5,132 nt of DNA from a virus. A model generated the notes under the pieces. It was not told where the DNA came from. It ran no database searches and worked only from the letters and a program-made list of their open reading frames with translations. Where the stretch lies: positions 1 to 5,132 of IMG/VR virus record IMGVR_UViG_3300029310_000197; one strand, written 5' to 3'. Both the position numbers and the translations under genes were made by a program. Positions 1 to 5,132 of the stretch are shown here, in pieces (position 1 is the first letter of the stretch; each line of letters begins with the position of its first letter).

Positions 1-99
1 ACCAAAATAAGGATTTGTACCACTCGCAGAAACGTACTTAACTATGTAAGACGAGGAACGTTCTTTCGAACGACATTCCTCTATAGAGGAAAAACCACA
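1..99. repeat. Terminal direct repeat, copy 1 of 2. Identical to 5034-5132. A circular genome was linearised with 99-nt redundancy, so the true unit length is 5033 nt.
   Basis: Read directly: the first 99 nt (accaaaataaggatttgtaccactcgc...ggaaaaaccaca) recur exactly at 5034-5132. The repeat falls inside one continuous minus-strand reading frame. Confidence 0.95.
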
Positions 100-528
100 G
101 TTCCAAATTTTTTTTAAAATACAAGGGAAATACTTAGCATCTACACCATTGACGAAATATAACGCATGGTAATGTGGACGCTTGAATTTACTTTTAACTT
201 TATCCTGATTTTTCGTCTGCGGGCCATACTCAGACGCAAGAAAATATTTGAAAGTCAAATTTAATTTGCGCCGAGTAATAAAAATCCGCAAACGTTTATG
301 AAAAAGTTGTATCATACGTTTAGAAGGATGCACAAGACCAAGAGTCTTAGGCAAATGCTCATCATCAATGGTCAAAGTGACAAAGAAAACTTTATCGGTA
401 GTCTTACATTCCAAAAGGCAACGCTGACGCCAATCGCTTGCTCGATGATTGACGCAATCAATGCACTTTCCGCACGGAACATCATACATTTGGCCATTTT
501 TGGTTATCTGTACAGGAGATATACACAT
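1..528 (-). CDS. Replication initiator (rolling-circle Rep, Microviridae VP4-like), N-terminal part. The ATG is at 528..526 and aa 1-176 are encoded down to base 1. The ORF continues across the circular junction into 5033..4470.
   Basis: Hand translation of the minus strand gives MCISPVQITKNGQMYDVPCGKCIDCVNHRASDWRQRCLLECKTTDKVFFVTLTIDDEHL...KFKRPHYHALYFVNG...SSYIVKYVSASG. RCR motif I (FFVTLTID) is present. So are the HUH motif (PHYHALYF) and the catalytic two-tyrosine motif (YIVKY, cf. phiX174 gene A YVAKYVNK). An N-terminal CGKCxxC cluster matches what I recall for gokushovirus VP4 proteins. An in-frame upstream stop lies at 537..535. The frame is open to base 1 and is in phase with the ORF leaving 5132. 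Confidence 0.9.
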   Translation of the reverse strand, partial: MCISPVQITKNGQMYDVPCGKCIDCVNHRASDWRQRCLLECKTTDKVFFVTLTIDDEHLPKTLGLVHPSKRMIQLFHKRLRIFITRRKLNLTFKYFLASEYGPQTKNQDKVKSKFKRPHYHALYFVNGVDAKYFPCILKKIWNCGFSSIEECRSKERSSSYIVKYVSASGTNPYFG

Positions 529-549
529 GATGCACTATTTTTTAATACA

Positions 550-581
550 CAAAGGTAAATATTATATTTGACATTACCAAT
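550..581 (-). promoter_or_regulatory. Candidate promoter for rep. A Bacteroidetes-type -7 motif TAccTTTG (minus strand, plus coordinates 557..550) has a TTG about 20 nt upstream (580..578) and an A10 UP-like tract. A sigma70-like TATAAT also lies at 566..561.
   Basis: The minus-strand sequence is ...ctactAAAAAAAAAAttggtaatgtcaaaTATAATatTTACCTTTGtgtattaaaaaatagtgcatcATG. The -7 motif matches the Bacteroides TAnnTTTG consensus. It sits about 21 nt upstream of the rep ATG. This is the only sizeable non-coding stretch upstream of rep. Confidence 0.3.
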
Positions 582-596
582 TTTTTTTTTAGTAGC

Positions 597-616
597 TGAC
601 ACAGAGGACTGTGTCA
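597..616. other. Hairpin with an 8-bp perfect stem (tgacacag / ctgtgtca) and a 4-nt loop. It is adjacent to a T10/A10 homopolymer at 581-590 and lies in the rep-upstream intergenic region.
   Basis: Read directly: 597-604 is the reverse complement of 609-616. T10 at 581-590 is the only long homopolymer in the genome. Confidence 0.55.
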
Positions 617-674
617 CTCCGCAATAATTGTCAAGTAAAAGGAGCGGAGCGCCGCTTTATGTAGCGGACGGCAT

Positions 675-729
675 AAAAAAGCCCCCGCGCAAGTTGATAA
701 TCAAAGATTATCAACGATTGCGCGAGGGC
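675..729 (-). terminator. Rho-independent terminator for the VP1-ORF116 transcription unit. It is an imperfect 49-nt palindrome at 681-729 (about 20 bp of stem) followed on the minus strand by a T6 tract at 680..675.
   Basis: Plus-strand 681-690 gcccccgcgc pairs with 720-729 gcgcgagggc, with 1 mismatch. The inner 693-702 gttgataatc pairs perfectly with 706-715 gattatcaac, leaving a 3-nt loop. On the gene (minus) strand the stem ends ...GCGCGGGGGC and is directly followed by TTTTTTAT. Confidence 0.6.
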
Positions 730-763
730 AAACAACCTCAAACTATTCTACTCTATGTTATCA

Positions 764-1114
764 TCAGTTTTTTTCGGTTTTTTGAGGAACGGAAGAATTG
801 TCTGTATCACTGACATCAGACACTGCAGAATTATCTTTAACATCTTGATTATTATTTTGATTATTATTTTGTTGAACATTAACAGTATCATCAAGGACAC
901 CAAGTTCATCTACATTAGGAAAGACATCGGAAAGATCTTGACCATACGCAATATCAGGAACATACGACATCATCGGGTCTTGGCCGGACATAGAAATAGA
1001 AATGATATCCTGGACAGATTTGGACATGTCCGGCATAGTAAGTTGAACACCAGAATTGACTTCATCCACGAAAGAATTTTCACGCGGAAGATAGGGGGAA
1101 CGATACGTACTCAT
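764..1114 (-). CDS. Hypothetical 116-aa acidic protein with an N/Q-rich low-complexity C-terminus. Possibly a scaffolding-like or VP5-like accessory protein.
   Basis: The ATG at 1114..1112 lies 2 nt after the VP1 TAA, which suggests translational coupling. The TGA stop is at 766..764. The product has many D/E/S residues (VDELGVLDDTVNVQQNNNQNNNQDVKDNSAVSDVSDTD). No motif is recognised. A rho-independent terminator follows about 35 nt downstream. Confidence 0.55.
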   Translation of the reverse strand: MSTYRSPYLPRENSFVDEVNSGVQLTMPDMSKSVQDIISISMSGQDPMMSYVPDIAYGQDLSDVFPNVDELGVLDDTVNVQQNNNQNNNQDVKDNSAVSDVSDTDNSSVPQKTEKN

Positions 1115-1116
1115 AA

Positions 1117-2808
1117 TTATAAATGTGGGTCTGCATATTTAGGAATCAAACGGAAAGCTTCAACCTGATTATATATCTGACAGTAAAGAGGATGCGCGAC
1201 ATCAGAAGACACAGCAAGGACATTGTCAACATTAGCATTATCATACGTAATAAATGAAGTATTCAGCATAGGAGCATTTTTGAAAGAACGAGCCATGTGC
1301 CAAAACCGTAAAGAGGAACGGAACTCACCATGTATTTCGTTAGGATTATACCTATATTCAGCATAGCGAGGAGCGTAACCAAATTCTTGATTTGAAAGAG
1401 CATGAACCGAGTTGGAAAGGGACTTATTTCCAAAGAAGTCAAAATAAATTTCTTTGTTACGGATAGCCTGTTCACCGATATTTGCGAACTCAGGCCAATA
1501 ATATTCATCCCAGGATTCACGACAGAACTTGCGCGGAACGCCTTGAAAATAAGCAGACTTAGGCATAACAGACAATATACCAATGAGTTGACCATGTTCT
1601 TCAAAACGGCGAGAGAATGCGAAATTAGACGATGCAGAAGTAGCATTACCAGCGAGCATACCAAGCGGCTCCTGAACAACACCGGACTCAGTAGTCTTAG
1701 AGGCACCAGTTTGTTGAACCTCAGACATAATTAGAGGAGTTTTAAGGCCACAAAGATACTCAGGACGCTGAAGACGAGCATCAGACGAACGGACACCGAA
1801 ATGCGAAAAGATTTGTTCAATATAACGTGAACCGCCAATAGCTTGGCGTTCGAGCCATTCTTGAATTTTGAAAGCGCGACGAAGATCGACAACGGAAGGA
1901 ACAGTTGAAGAAGTAAAACGAACTTTTAGATCTTTGGAATTATCAATGTGAACGTTACTTGAATTGGGAAGCCCTTGATCAGCATCAGACGAATTAGCAA
2001 ACGAAGTAAGAAGATTGCCAACACCATCAGATCCGAGAATACCTTTAGGAGGATCATCCAAGCCATTGGAACCATAAATAGCATTACCAGACGAAGAAGG
2101 ATTATAGTAAACTTCACCAGAACCAAAAGGCAAAGTCACTGGATTAGTGCCATACTGCGGCCAGGGGAGAGCAGAAGTAAAGTAATCATGTATCCAAGCA
2201 CGACGCTGAAGTTGCATGAGACGGAGAGACTCAGTTTTATCAACAGTACCAGAAGCACGTGAAAACTCTATCTCAGCAGTGAGATTTTGGTCACGATAAT
2301 ACTCATTATATATAAGCGCATACGCGCGGAACGGCAGTGCATCAATAGACGAAAGAGTGCCGCCGAAATCCTTAGTAGGAACCTCATTAACAGTAGGAAA
2401 ACCAAAGTAGTCATAAAGACTTCCAGGGGATATTTCAGAAGGAATATCCCTCATATCGTTGTAAGGACCATTAGGAATAGAAACCTGCAAAGACGGACGG
2501 ACGGGTAGGACAGCAGAACCAGGCTTTTTTACATTTGAAATGAAGTCTTGGAAATCATCCCATACAAGACGATTAGGTACGAAGAAATAATGCATGTACA
2601 CATCTACCTGCTGCATGAGTGGAGCCAAGGTGGGAGCCATACGAATAAGATGTTTTTGGCCAACCTTGAAGGCATCACCAGGTAAAACCTCCTGATGAAA
2701 AAACGGTATAAGTTGACCGAACTTCGCAGTAAGGCGATTTTCATAAGAAAGGTCAAAACTTGAGCCAGAAGGCTTAGTAAGACGAATTGAATTAAATATA
2801 TTAGCCAT
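1117..2808 (-). CDS. Major capsid protein (Microviridae VP1 / phiX174 F homologue, gokushovirus-type), 563 aa.
   Basis: The ATG is at 2808..2806 and the TAA at 1119..1117. The N-terminal region (SFDLSYENRLTAKFGQLIPFFHQEVLPGDAFKVGQKHLIRMAPTLAPLMQQVDVYMHYFFVPNRLVW) closely follows the conserved N-terminal pattern of gokushovirus VP1 as I remember it (Chp2/SpV4: SFDRS...L.P.F..EVLPGD.F......R.A.P.L.......Y.FFVP.RL.W). The 563-aa size is typical for Gokushovirinae VP1. An internal G/S/N-rich stretch matches the known variable surface-loop insertion. Confidence 0.93.
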   Translation of the reverse strand: MANIFNSIRLTKPSGSSFDLSYENRLTAKFGQLIPFFHQEVLPGDAFKVGQKHLIRMAPTLAPLMQQVDVYMHYFFVPNRLVWDDFQDFISNVKKPGSAVLPVRPSLQVSIPNGPYNDMRDIPSEISPGSLYDYFGFPTVNEVPTKDFGGTLSSIDALPFRAYALIYNEYYRDQNLTAEIEFSRASGTVDKTESLRLMQLQRRAWIHDYFTSALPWPQYGTNPVTLPFGSGEVYYNPSSSGNAIYGSNGLDDPPKGILGSDGVGNLLTSFANSSDADQGLPNSSNVHIDNSKDLKVRFTSSTVPSVVDLRRAFKIQEWLERQAIGGSRYIEQIFSHFGVRSSDARLQRPEYLCGLKTPLIMSEVQQTGASKTTESGVVQEPLGMLAGNATSASSNFAFSRRFEEHGQLIGILSVMPKSAYFQGVPRKFCRESWDEYYWPEFANIGEQAIRNKEIYFDFFGNKSLSNSVHALSNQEFGYAPRYAEYRYNPNEIHGEFRSSLRFWHMARSFKNAPMLNTSFITYDNANVDNVLAVSSDVAHPLYCQIYNQVEAFRLIPKYADPHL

Positions 2809-2822
2809 TAATTTTGATTTAG

Positions 2823-2848
2823 GTGTGCAGCGCTAACGCGCTGCACAC
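2823..2848. other. Perfect GC-rich hairpin, an 11-bp stem (gtgtgcagcgc / gcgctgcacac) with a 4-nt loop (taac). It lies in the 214-nt intergenic region upstream of VP1.
   Basis: Read directly: 2823-2833 is the exact reverse complement of 2838-2848. It is a GC island in an AT-rich genome. No U/T tract follows on either strand, so it is not a canonical intrinsic terminator. Confidence 0.7.
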
Positions 2849-2950
2849 AATTAATAAGGTTAGGACATTTTTTAAACTATCAAAACGAAAAAGATCATAA
2901 ATGAAAAACACGAAAATCAAAGATGATCAATAGCAATTTGAAAGTTAAAT

Positions 2951-3016
2951 TTACAGGCGAATACCACCACGCGGCATGATATAGGTAGTGGAACGCTTAC
3001 CAGAATTTTTTTTCAT
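2951..3016 (-). CDS. Candidate micro-ORF of 21 aa, MKKNSGKRSTTYIMPRGGIRL. It has net charge about +6 and no acidic residues. Possibly a J/ORF8-like small DNA-binding packaging protein.
   Basis: An ATG at 3016..3014 leads to a TAA at 2953..2951. It sits directly after the ORF122 stop, in the same frame 6 nt downstream, and before the VP1 gene. This is the position where phiX174 has J before F, and where gokushoviruses carry a small basic ORF8 after VP3. It is very short, so it could be chance. Confidence 0.2.
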   Translation of the reverse strand: MKKNSGKRSTTYIMPRGGIRL

Positions 3017-3022
3017 AAGCAG

Positions 3023-3391
3023 TCATTTATTTTTATGTGAAACATCATCGAGAACTTGATTAAGCAAAGAGTCAATAAAATCCTCATCAGTGCGAACACG
3101 AGATTTAAAACACAAACGCTCGATATAAAGACAGATACGAGTAAGATCAGACGTTTTAAGATAACCCAAAGATTTGTGTAAACGAGAAACACATTTATTA
3201 TAGGCAATCAAACGCTCAGGAAAGGAAGGACAGACAGCAGTATTTGCGTAGAAACGCTTCCAAAACAAATCAGGAAGAATGTCCATAACGAAGTAAAGTT
3301 GCTTTAACGAAAGAGTGTCAAGAAGATTATATACCTTATCATAATCGAAAAGGCAAACATCATCTGAATTAGGAGATTTCTTATTATTCAT
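3023..3391 (-). CDS. Hypothetical 122-aa protein in the VP3 (internal scaffolding) position, immediately downstream of VP2.
   Basis: The ATG at 3391..3389 lies 5 nt after the VP2 TAA at 3399..3397. The frame is same-strand and tightly coupled, with coding-like composition and a TGA stop at 3025..3023. No motif is recognised. The VP3 assignment is positional only. Confidence 0.55.
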   Translation of the reverse strand: MNNKKSPNSDDVCLFDYDKVYNLLDTLSLKQLYFVMDILPDLFWKRFYANTAVCPSFPERLIAYNKCVSRLHKSLGYLKTSDLTRICLYIERLCFKSRVRTDEDFIDSLLNQVLDDVSHKNK

Positions 3392-3396
3392 AACAT

Positions 3397-4464
3397 TTAA
3401 TATTTTTGAGAACGAAGTTTTAATTCATGCCTGGCATCCTTATCGACATCATCCAAATCACCAGTAATAAGAGCACCAGTCTTAAGACCTTGTGAGAACA
3501 TATCCGAACCATACATATCAGTATAAGCCTTGACAAAGCCGAACAAGTCCAATATTTCATATTGACGCTGTGCAGTCATTGCCTGAAAATGACGATTTTG
3601 GAGAATATCCAACATAGAAGCATTAGCTAACTTATACTCACTAATTTTTAATTGAGTACAAGCATCATCAAGAGCATTCTGATACTTTACACGAAGTGTA
3701 CTTGTGGCTGAATTTTGTGCATTTGTGGCAGCATTTTGCGCATTTGCATTTGCATTCACACGATTTGCGTAAGTTTGAGACCGAAGATTTTCGAGATATG
3801 CGGGGAAAGCTTCAATTTTCAATGCGAGTTCATCAGCTTGCTTACCAGAGAGCCGAGTTTGCGCGGCTATTAAATCACCTTGCTTTTGAGCATTATAGTA
3901 CTCTTGAACTTTCAAATCAATATCTTTACCTTGAATAGTGACAATATTTTTTTGCTGCTGCAAGATAATAGGCCATTGTTCAAGACTGAATTTTGTTAAA
4001 CCATTCTGATAAGACACACGAGAATTGAGAGTATCGCGAAGATACTGAGTGTCGAGGGCTTTATTAGCAATGAGTGCTAAGTCCAATTGATTTTGTGTTT
4101 CCTGTCTACGAACTTGAGACCGAGCTAGTTTCATACTCGTAACAGCAGAAACACCCTTAAACATACTATCAGAATAATCGACAGGTGCGACAGTACCAAG
4201 CGAAGTAGACGTATTATTTGAAGAATTGCCAGAAACACCATTACCATAAACGAGGTTAGGATTAAGTCCAGCAGCCTGAAGACGTTGCATCTGCGCTGTG
4301 GGAGCGTTATACTCGTTCTGTTTATTCCAAAGGTCGAGATTTTGCTGATACTGCAGCTGCATAAGTTTTTTTGTATAGTTATAATTTTGTCGTTGAGAAA
4401 TGGCAGATCCAATCATGCCAATGCCAGCGCCGATAGCGCCTTCAGCAATAGAAGCCCAGTTCAT
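3397..4464 (-). CDS. Minor capsid / DNA pilot protein (Microviridae VP2-like; functional analogue of phiX174 H), 355 aa.
   Basis: The ATG at 4464..4462 lies 5 nt after the rep stop. The N-terminus is glycine-rich and hydrophobic (ASIAEGAIGAGIGMIGSAIS, glycine-zipper-like). A long Q/N/A-rich predicted helical, coiled-coil-like central part follows (ANRVNANANAQNAATNAQN). Size and position relative to rep and the capsid gene are typical of gokushovirus VP2. Homology was not verified by search. Confidence 0.75.
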   Translation of the reverse strand: MNWASIAEGAIGAGIGMIGSAISQRQNYNYTKKLMQLQYQQNLDLWNKQNEYNAPTAQMQRLQAAGLNPNLVYGNGVSGNSSNNTSTSLGTVAPVDYSDSMFKGVSAVTSMKLARSQVRRQETQNQLDLALIANKALDTQYLRDTLNSRVSYQNGLTKFSLEQWPIILQQQKNIVTIQGKDIDLKVQEYYNAQKQGDLIAAQTRLSGKQADELALKIEAFPAYLENLRSQTYANRVNANANAQNAATNAQNSATSTLRVKYQNALDDACTQLKISEYKLANASMLDILQNRHFQAMTAQRQYEILDLFGFVKAYTDMYGSDMFSQGLKTGALITGDLDDVDKDARHELKLRSQKY

Positions 4465-4469
4465 ATTAT

Positions 4470-5132
4470 CTAACTATAAATTTGTGAAAGGTATTGCAAA
4501 TCATTTCGCAAACGCTTCTTGTCAAATGATTTATAAAACTCCTGAAGGACATGGCACTGGGCTTCCTTCCACTCAGAACGTAAAGAACGTTCAGACTCAG
4601 AAAGATTATAATCTGATACAATGAAAGAACAACGACGATAGGCATTGCGAAGCAAAGAATATATAGGAGATACACACTCAGAAAAAGTACGCGTAGGAGC
4701 ATCAAAAGTATACTCCTTAGAAATCGGAATATTAAAAAGAATAGTCTCATATGGAGAAAACAAATTAAAGAAAAGTTTGACGTAGTCGATATCTTGGAAA
4801 TCAGAAGAAAGAACTTGTTTGATAATCCGTACTATGTTAACATTTTGAGAACGTAGAAACTTTATAATTTCAGCAAGATTTTTTTTAAAACGAGGGGCTA
4901 AAACTTCCTGAAAATACTTTTTACCAATAGAAGTACTATGTAAACAAAAAGTATTATAAGTACGAGCATCAAAAAAAGCTGAAAAGGACGAGCGCTCAGA
5001 ATAGCTAACATAATCATCAAATTTTAATTCATTACCAAAATAAGGATTTGTACCACTCGCAGAAACGTACTTAACTATGTAAGACGAGGAACGTTCTTTC
5101 GAACGACATTCCTCTATAGAGGAAAAACCACA
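4470..5132 (-). CDS. Replication initiator (VP4-like), C-terminal part. 4470..5033 is unique (aa 177-363 plus a TAG stop at 4472..4470). 5034..5132 duplicates aa 144-176 already encoded at 1..99. The full protein is 363 aa.
   Basis: There is no stop in this minus frame from 5132 down to the TAG at 4472..4470. The frame is continuous with codons 102..100 at the window start. The 97-aa track ORF 4470..4763 is just the tail of this frame, beginning at an internal TTG (plus 4761-4763 = caa). Confidence 0.9.
   Translation of the reverse strand, partial: CGFSSIEECRSKERSSSYIVKYVSASGTNPYFGNELKFDDYVSYSERSSFSAFFDARTYNTFCLHSTSIGKKYFQEVLAPRFKKNLAEIIKFLRSQNVNIVRIIKQVLSSDFQDIDYVKLFFNLFSPYETILFNIPISKEYTFDAPTRTFSECVSPIYSLLRNAYRRCSFIVSDYNLSESERSLRSEWKEAQCHVLQEFYKSFDKKRLRNDLQYLSQIYS
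5034..5132. repeat. Terminal direct repeat, copy 2 of 2. Identical to 1-99.
   Basis: Exact 99/99 identity with the window start. Confidence 0.95.

Follow-up and report, generated by a model that had tools for sequence, protein, structure and literature searches.

Thousands of microvirus genomes exist, and in the Microviridae gene order alone is a poor signal of novelty. All Pichovirinae have the order VP4-VP2-VP1 and the other groups VP4-VP1-VP2 (Roux et al., 2012, PMC3394797), while all six possible orders of the conserved genes occur within Family 3 (Kirchberger et al., 2022, PMC9239249). Integration by XerC and XerD, two recombinases of the host, at dif sites was proposed for microvirus proviruses of Bacteroidetes (Krupovic and Forterre, 2011, PMC3091885) and has been shown experimentally for the enterogokushoviruses (Kirchberger and Ochman, 2020, PMC7062461). 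The stretch of DNA considered here (IMG/VR record IMGVR_UViG_3300029310_000197, positions 1 to 5,132; hereafter the window, 5,132 nucleotides, nt) is, with high confidence, the complete 5,033-nt circle of a temperate member of the Microviridae from gut Bacteroidales, which belongs to the Family 3 assemblage and has the gene order typical of its clade. Its replication gene, rep (VP4), carries a dif-like site in frame. This layout is a modestly novel integration arrangement in an otherwise ordinary genome.

The circular genome, its relatives and its gene order

The two ends of the window (1-99 and 5034-5132, no strand) form a direct repeat that is 100% identical at a spacing of 5033, as expected for the assembly overlap of a circular molecule of 5,033 nt; the first copy lies within rep. 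An independent ENA assembly (L139; such labels denote fetched loci and contigs related to the window) agrees with this genome at 99.98% identity and has a terminal repeat of its own, 119 nt long. Because it closes the same circle independently, circularity is not the artefact of one assembly. After circularization all substantial open reading frames (ORFs) lie on the minus strand, in the sequence Rep, VP2, ORF122, a 21-aa basic ORF, VP1 and ORF116. Coding sequence occupies about 92% of the circle, 235 nt between ORF116 and rep are non-coding, and T makes up 35% of the coding strand. An earlier note on this DNA had described a complete circular Microviridae genome with a 99-nt repeat and with tightly packed genes on a single strand in exactly this sequence, and all of this holds. 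Two further contigs, L138 and L140, were considered as possible mosaics owing to their differing called gene lengths, a possibility ruled out by their identity to the window of 99.9-100% wherever they align. The exact VP1 of the window occurs on at least six contigs of the ENA/Logan collection, four of which, among the matches listed, come from four ENA assemblies. The genome is a new uncultured representative of a known microvirus type that is already present many times in public assemblies.

The family assignment rests on the three core proteins. The major capsid protein, VP1 (1117..2808, minus strand, 563 aa), matches Phage_F (PF02305) at 1.4e-107 over residues 16-562 and PHROG 514 at 4.6e-155, and its alignment displays a hypervariable insertion at about residues 225-300. 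VP2 (3397..4464, minus strand, 355 aa) is the DNA pilot protein and matches PHROG 8689, 31272 and 8693, each annotated as "pilot protein for DNA ejection", the best being PHROG 8689 at 3.8e-24. The 363-aa Rep is a rolling-circle initiator whose ORF runs across the circle junction, codons 1-176 being located at 1..528 and codons 177-363 with the stop at 4470..5033 (both minus strand; 528..1 joined to 5033..4470). It matches PF23343 at 1.9e-13 and PHROG 942 at 7e-41, and contains a CxxC motif (residues 19-25), motif I FFVTLT (48-53), motif II HYHALYF (119-125) and motif III YIVKY with two tyrosines (161-165). The similarity searches that the earlier note had proposed for VP1 and Rep are thereby answered in favor of the Microviridae, several of whose traits are present: a 5,033-nt circle, a single-strand gene set, a pilot protein, a Phage_F capsid and a two-tyrosine Rep.

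The closest complete phage genomes in GenBank are bajarodmic virus 1128 (47% identity in VP1) and Microvirus mar5 (46%), and scans of the GTDB representative genomes and of IMG/VR return no VP1 relative above 44%. In a large protein collection, VP1 relatives at 95, 90, 89, 87% and so on come from Logan/ENA assemblies, and one nr protein from a metagenome-assembled genome (MAG) reaches 86%. A VP1 tree of 138 sequences (neighbor-joining on a simple distance, not maximum likelihood, with 100 bootstraps) places the window in a clade of 15 with 100% bootstrap and in a wider clade of 21 with 96%, which includes bajarodmic virus 1128 and Microvirus mar5. The window clade is well supported and unnamed, and is shared with rodent and marmot fecal microviruses. 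Identity in VP1 is 44 and 42% to the Parabacteroides prophages YZ-2015a and YZ-2015b, 38-44% to the Parabacteroides and Stokavirinae group, 37% to Fen7918_21 of the Pichovirinae, 32% to the Aravirinae reference, 31-36% to Chp2, SpV4 and phiMH2K and 23.5% to the 6.3-kb Bacteroides phage phiHBP1. The references of the gokushoviruses, of the Pichovirinae and Aravirinae and of the Parabacteroides and Stokavirinae group lie in other parts of the tree than the window, the deep nodes being weak. At a broad level the genome can be assigned to the Gokushovirinae/Pichovirinae assemblage, Family 3 in Kirchberger et al. (2022): its VP1 is 31-44% identical to the Family 3 references at a criterion of at least 30%, by identity and not by the protein-sharing network of those authors.

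Within this assemblage, NCBI-style labels and some whole-family trees would place the phage in Gokushovirinae proper, its gene order then being a derived one. Such membership is improbable, since its VP1 is 31-36% identical to the three type gokushoviruses, which fall elsewhere in the tree, and its core order differs from that of Chp2 (VP1-VP2-VP3-ORF8-ORF4(rep)-ORF5), a difference from the classical order that had been pointed out correctly from the sequence. Homologues of VP3 (PF09675-type) and VP5 were not found in the window by Pfam, phmmer or hhalign, and the local searches with a VP3 hidden Markov model (HMM) and with VP5 by phmmer match only gokushovirus-type loci. What speaks for such membership is the C-terminus of the 21-aa peptide (VP8), RGGIRL, held in common with ORF8 of Chp2 (RGGIRF) and the DNA-binding protein of phiMH2K (RGGIRL), together with the hypervariable insertion of VP1, which is typical of the assemblage, and the tree in the phiHBP1 paper, which puts the neighboring "Bajarodmic/Dulem/Tortoise" groups within Gokushovirinae (PMC13064476). 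Strictly speaking, the phage would not count as a gokushovirus, and the term gokushovirus-like, used in the earlier note, was a loose one.

The order of the core genes was counted where VP1, Rep and VP2 could all be located by iterated HMMs over all fetched loci. This gave 124 loci, with VP1-Rep-VP2 in 80 of them and VP1-VP2-Rep in the other 44. Every member of the window clade with all three genes shares the order of the window (nine loci besides the window, with VP1 identities of 46-89%). The order is seen in the clade loci L120, L121, L005, L006 and L122-L125, in bajarodmic virus 1128 (PQ007403) and in Microvirus mar5 (MZ089751); in L004 rep runs off the end of the contig and the remaining layout agrees. 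The records of Fen7918_21 (Pichovirinae, VP1-VP4-hyp-VP2) and Fen7895_21 (Aravirinae) also have an order of the VP4-VP2-VP1 type, which bears out the resemblance to Pichovirinae suggested in the earlier note. The VP1-Rep-VP2 order is typical of the window clade, the Pichovirinae and the Aravirinae. It may have arisen independently in the window clade, because this clade neighbors Bacteroidales prophages with another order in a weakly resolved tree.

The proposal that the genome marks a novel or under-described lineage, recognizable by an unusual rearrangement that puts a pilot/VP3 module between rep and the capsid gene, is therefore very unlikely to be right. The nearest clade has the same order in all relatives in which the core genes were found, PQ007403 and MZ089751 included; VP4-VP2-VP1 was already published in 2012, and Family 3 is reported to include all six orders. 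ORF122, which had been assigned to the VP3 module, is not detectably VP3 (P=0.51 against VP3 in hhalign) and occurs only in the closest relatives. The part of the proposal that stands is the distance to named phages: the best complete GenBank genome reaches only 47% in VP1, and neither the GTDB representative genomes nor IMG/VR contain anything closer than 44%. In addition, the clade is separate in the VP1 tree from the Pichovirinae and Aravirinae, lies beside Bacteroidales prophages of another order, so that its own order may be independent, and has its ORF116-family gene after VP1 rather than after Rep as in the Pichovirinae. Against its being under-described, relatives at 82-95% and identical copies are present in public assemblies, along with the MAG protein at 86%.

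A dif-like site within rep and the prophage state

The dif-like site, the phage attachment site (attP), is a 28-nt sequence, TGTTAACATAG-TACGGA-TTATCAAACAA, at 4815..4842 (minus strand), within rep codons 241-249 (VNIVRIIKQ). The pattern has one match in the window where 0.03 are expected, the site has no single-strand fold, and the rep frame is uninterrupted across it. The core has the layout ATTTAACATAA-N6-TTAT.., that is, two 11-nt arms and a 6-nt spacer. For comparison, dif of E. coli reads, as its reverse complement, ATTTAACATAA-TATACA-TTATGCGCACC.

Several VP1 relatives lie on long contigs together with bacterial genes, and in these the phage homology starts and stops at one 23-28-nt core. 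The prophage/host junctions coincide exactly with the dif-like core in L004, L005, L122 and L124 (VP1 identities of 90, 82, 65 and 54%) and also in L137. Their positions are 8062 and 13006 in L004, 7852 and 12994 in L005, 7938 and 12938 in L124 and 665 and 5698 in L137. Both attL and attR are seen in L004 and L005, a 23-nt direct repeat of the core flanks the prophage in L124, and attL only is seen in L122 and L137. Host genes are found on both sides in L005 and L124, and in L004 they occupy the left side, with about 150 nt of non-phage DNA on the right. The ordinary bacterial genes on the long contigs rule out that these are concatemers. The host-side copies of the core, (A/C)TTTAACATAA-N6-TTATC..., have the arm-spacer-arm layout of dif. 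At the sole position where host and phage arms differ, attL has the host base and attR the phage base, the pattern predicted for a true crossover. L137 is the same phage as the window (99.98-100% identity) joined to host DNA at attL, and its flank shares about 90% identity with the flank of L004 and L122, which are two different phages at the same host locus. The phage is temperate, and its integration at the dif-like site splits rep.

A strictly lytic phage, whose seeming host junctions would be chimeras produced in assembly at a short repeat present by chance, is a scarcely credible alternative. In its favor, L137 runs on into another copy of the phage, the scaffold L138 has an N gap, and the motif is missing from the close relative L120/L121. 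Against it, four prophage lineages that have diverged and come from different samples all break at the same core, two different phages occupy one host locus, the bases at attL and attR are those of a real crossover, and the dif layout of the core also occurs beside other Bacteroidales microvirus prophages.

The temperate state also links the clade to a host, read from the flanking genes of the Logan/ENA prophage contigs. L004 is flanked by a gene for an RsmI protein identical to CDE57769.1 of Prevotella sp. CAG:873, and other prophage flank proteins cluster with proteins of Prevotellamassilia and Muribaculaceae. These neighbors point to gut Bacteroidales (Prevotella sp. CAG:873-like and Muribaculaceae-like) as the host. 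An uncultured microvirus clade is in this way tied to gut Bacteroidales, with free and integrated forms of the same phage in public data. The L005 contig also carries, a few kb beyond htpG, a partial tailed-phage prophage (15383-21692; portal, protease, capsid and tail), which is unrelated to the microvirus.

None of the six ORFs of the window has a Pfam or PHROG match to an integrase or recombinase. Since the phage encodes no recombinase, the natural reading is that XerC/XerD of the host would bring about integration, by recombining the 28-nt dif mimic in rep with the chromosomal dif. Four other Bacteroidales microvirus prophages have intergenic dif-like sites of the form TTTAACATAA-N6-TTATG (L012 1030, L016 4045, L023 3618 and L007 10540), located next to rep in L012 and L016, next to VP2 in L023 and downstream of the ORF116-family gene in L007. 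Their core order is VP1-VP2-Rep in L012, L016 and L023 and that of the window in L007. The four sites together suggest a provisional dif consensus for Bacteroidales.

Integration has a marked effect on Rep. In the circles reconstructed from the prophages, the rep frame is continuous, as read directly in L004 and L005 and from coordinates in L124, and the attL side of L122 agrees. In every prophage, by contrast, the Rep at attR is cut to about 240 phage-encoded residues, and the C-terminal domain is a separate ORF at attL, just 5' of VP2. The prophage map accordingly runs attL, Rep C-terminal domain, VP2, ORF122, VP8, VP1, ORF116, Rep residues 1-249, attR. The separated domain (residues 250-363; window 4473-4814, minus strand) is specific to the clade and conserved in L120. 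Among 1.84 billion representative proteins, no more than 5 clusters match it: full-length Reps of 361 and 354 aa account for two, lone ORFs of about 100-115 aa, the attL form of the prophage, for two more, and a weakly matching 444-aa protein for the last. A PHROG search with the domain gave no match, and the Rep C-termini of bajarodmic virus 1128 and mar5 have no detectable relation to that of the window.

This arrangement may have a regulatory meaning. We regard it as possible, though doubtful, that the dif mimic within rep is the lysogeny switch of the clade, with Rep split in the prophage and rebuilt on excision. On integration, Rep would be severed behind residue 249 and its C-terminal domain would end up at the opposite end of the prophage, so that the integrated genome would be unable to make the full-length initiator until excision restored it. 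The in-frame dif in rep and the separate C-terminal ORF at attL are conserved over prophages whose VP1 is 54-90% identical to that of the window. A dif embedded in an essential gene could explain a quiet prophage that has neither repressor nor integrase and, if the switch is real, would provide repressor-free control of lysogeny in a six-gene phage. A limited literature search found no earlier report of a dif-in-rep layout.

Several observations weigh against the picture of a temperate Family 3 phage of gut Bacteroidales as drawn so far. The deep nodes of the VP1 tree have bootstrap values below 20, so the placement relative to Pichovirinae sensu stricto, the Parabacteroides prophages and Gokushovirinae is unsettled. 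In L137 (1-5806), the host flank is followed by attL, one full copy of the phage and a phage-type attP, after which come about 83-85 nt more of phage sequence; this could reflect either prophages in tandem or an assembly path in which integrated and free forms are joined. The contigs L120 and L121 (VP1 89%, circular size) are without the dif-like motif and have other codons at the att position (within L120 2492-3577 and L121 3415-4500). The ability to integrate appears to have been gained or lost within the clade, where temperance appears not to be universal. The GC skew, taken over about 8 kb of flanking DNA on each side as a sign of a chromosomal dif at the replication terminus, changes sign at the site in L005 and keeps it in L124. 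Finally, we infer, rather than observe, the single-stranded DNA state, the nick site, the dependence on XerCD and the promoter.

Smaller genes and non-coding elements

The window encodes three small proteins besides Rep, VP2 and VP1. The 21-aa ORF (2951..3016, minus strand) encodes the K/R-rich peptide MKKNSGKRSTTYIMPRGGIRL. All clade members examined, including those with as little as 46% VP1 identity, have a K/R-rich ORF with a (P/S)RGGIRL end just 5' of VP1. Because of this conserved position and the C-terminus common to the Chp2 and phiMH2K proteins, the ORF is taken as a real gene for the VP8/J-type DNA-binding peptide. A PHROG search with the VP8 peptides gave no match, and PHROG 10695 misses the 21-aa peptide. 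The ORF is left out of four of the five called gene tables examined.

ORF116 (764..1114, minus strand) encodes an acidic protein whose family is widespread among microviruses and has the motif S.TVPD.S.S[IV].E[IL][IL]...G...DL.D. A search of 133 sequences (the window and 132 loci) detected the family in 100. It corresponds to PHROG 22155, for which no function is annotated, and has no match in Pfam or among PDB sequences. Alignment with the gokushovirus VP3 by hhalign is weak (probability 30%, P 5.5e-4, N-terminal 54 columns). ORF116 is tentatively considered the likeliest internal scaffolding (VP3-equivalent) protein of the phage. The position of the gene varies with the clade: it follows VP1 in the window clade and in the Parabacteroides-type prophages, and Rep in the Pichovirinae.

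ORF122 (3023..3391, minus strand) is all-helical and fills a variable slot between VP2 and VP8. Its homologues are confined to 6 loci including the window, all with at least 82% VP1 identity, and more distant clade members have unrelated ORFs in this slot. It has no Pfam or PHROG match, and in hhalign it resembles neither VP3 nor VP5 nor the ORF116 family. A single-sequence AlphaFold (AF2) model is a five-helix bundle (predicted local distance difference test, pLDDT, 66), for which a Foldseek search of BFVD returns nothing below E 0.3.

The capsid, by homology, would be a T=1 shell of VP1, with VP2 piloting the DNA and the 21-aa VP8 neutralizing the packaged DNA; ORF116 might provide the scaffold. 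The six genes probably form one transcription unit on a T-rich virion strand, from rep through VP2, ORF122, VP8 and VP1 to ORF116, that ends at a hairpin with a T-run.

The candidate viral-strand replication origin lies between ORF116 and rep (597..649, minus strand). It consists of a stem-loop and a second hairpin. The stem has 6 bp (649-644 with 622-617), and its 21-nt loop contains the invariant ACTTGACAATTATTG (636-622); 3' of it follows the hairpin TGACACAG-tcct-CTGTGTCA (616-597). Over seven sequences, five of the six stem pairs show compensatory changes with all cells paired, while the loop is invariant. The covariation score was reached by none of 500 shuffles, and the fold has a z of -6.2. 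The exact motif occurs once per locus, just 5' of rep, in all nine close-clade loci then fetched. The exact extended pattern was seen in one IMG/VR contig only (L136). The stem-loop is proposed as the viral-strand origin because its loop resembles the phiX174 origin, AACTTG^ATATTAATAAC: both phages have ACTTGA followed by AT-rich sequence (ACTTGACAATTATTG in the window) and a two-tyrosine Rep. The two also differ, for the phiX174 origin lies inside gene A, whereas the candidate of the window is intergenic and in the loop of a covarying stem. The ACTTGACAATTATTG stem-loop is thus the likely origin and contains a candidate nick site, and Rep, by its sequence a two-tyrosine rolling-circle initiator, probably nicks at ACTTG^ACAAT in the stem-loop 5' of its own gene. 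Together with the VP8 gene, it gives a concrete, testable candidate in a group whose small features usually go unannotated.

Directly after ORF116 lies a 22-bp hairpin followed by TTTTTT (675..729, minus strand; -22.4 kcal/mol, z -7.6), likely the terminator of the single rep-to-ORF116 transcription unit. At this position L120, L004 and L005 have other sequences that again form long inverted repeats, as judged by inspection. A consensus terminator scan overlooked the 675-729 hairpin owing to a bulge.

A perfect 11-bp GC-rich hairpin, GTGTGCAGCGC-gtta-GCGCTGCACAC, is located between VP8 and VP1 (2823..2848, minus strand; -15 kcal/mol, z -5.8). It is conserved in L120, L121 and L004, and in L005 the stem differs yet stays complementary. 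No T-run follows it, and it is absent in the relatives with 65% and 54% VP1 identity. By analogy with the J-F region of phiX174, it may be a partial terminator or a stabilizer of the mRNA.

The Bacteroides -7 promoter consensus is reportedly TAnnTTTG. The sequence TACCTTTG (550..557, minus strand), 21 nt 5' of the rep ATG, fits it and is a putative promoter element that would be consistent with a Bacteroidales host; TAnnTTTG is also found 5' of rep in L120, L004, bajarodmic virus 1128 and mar5. A sigma-70 promoter scan gave 14 matches against 14.4 expected, this consensus being uninformative for a Bacteroidales host. No tRNA was found in the window. The sole Rfam match is a sub-threshold U12 (26.5 bits, E 0.026, where the gathering score is 53), which is taken as chance; it lies at 3579-3721 on the plus strand, the non-coding strand within VP2.

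Comparison with described microviruses

The Pichovirinae (Roux et al., 2012), compared here through Fen7918_21 (KM589513), resemble the window phage in the VP4-VP2-VP1 order, the presence of an ORF116-family gene and the small genome, and in both VP1, VP2 and VP4 are the only readily recognizable genes. They differ in VP1 (37% identity) and form a separate clade in the neighbor-joining tree, with connecting nodes below 20. Their Rep has about 275 aa in contrast to 363 aa, and their ORF116-family gene stands after Rep and not after VP1. Furthermore, the Pichovirinae come from aquatic and peat samples and have no known host, whereas the window phage is temperate and belongs to gut Bacteroidales.

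The unclassified bajarodmic virus 1128 and Microvirus mar5, from rodent and marmot feces, are closer. They share the 96% clade, the order VP1, ORF116-like, Rep, VP2, a VP8 ORF with an SRGGIRL end just before VP1 and the TAnnTTTG element 5' of rep. Their VP1 is nevertheless only 46-47% identical, and no dif-like motif of the window type was found in them. Of the origin motif, mar5 has only a partial ACTTGACA...TGACAC and bajarodmic virus 1128 none.

Among the prophages, YZ-2015a and YZ-2015b of Parabacteroides (Quaiser et al., 2015) have in common with the window phage a Bacteroidales host, the prophage state, a VP1 identity of 42-44% and an ORF116-family gene directly after VP1, but their core order is VP1-VP2-VP4. 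The Alpavirinae prophages BMV1-7 (Krupovic and Forterre, 2011, PMC3091885) also reside in Bacteroidales, with dif-like flanks and without a recombinase gene. By description, they are larger (about 6.3 kb), have larger capsid proteins, the order Rep-VP1-VP2 and an att site 5' of rep, and no J/VP8 homologue was identifiable in them according to that paper, whereas the window has VP8. Alpavirinae in general have genomes of about 6 kb and a VP1 of about 630 aa, so that the window, with 5.0 kb and 563 aa, would be atypical (again compared by description).

The closest parallel in mechanism is provided by the enterogokushoviruses (EC6098; Kirchberger and Ochman, 2020, PMC7062461). Like the window phage, they lack an integrase and recombine a phage dif with the host dif, through XerC/XerD, and their free circles coexist with the prophage. 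Unlike it, they infect Enterobacteriaceae and have the gokushovirus gene order. The two also differ in the location of the site and its consequence: in the enterogokushovirus study (PMC7062461) the only dif motifs counted were those in non-coding DNA or, occasionally, at the VP4 N-terminus, whereas in the window the site occupies rep codons 241-249 and integration removes the last third of Rep.

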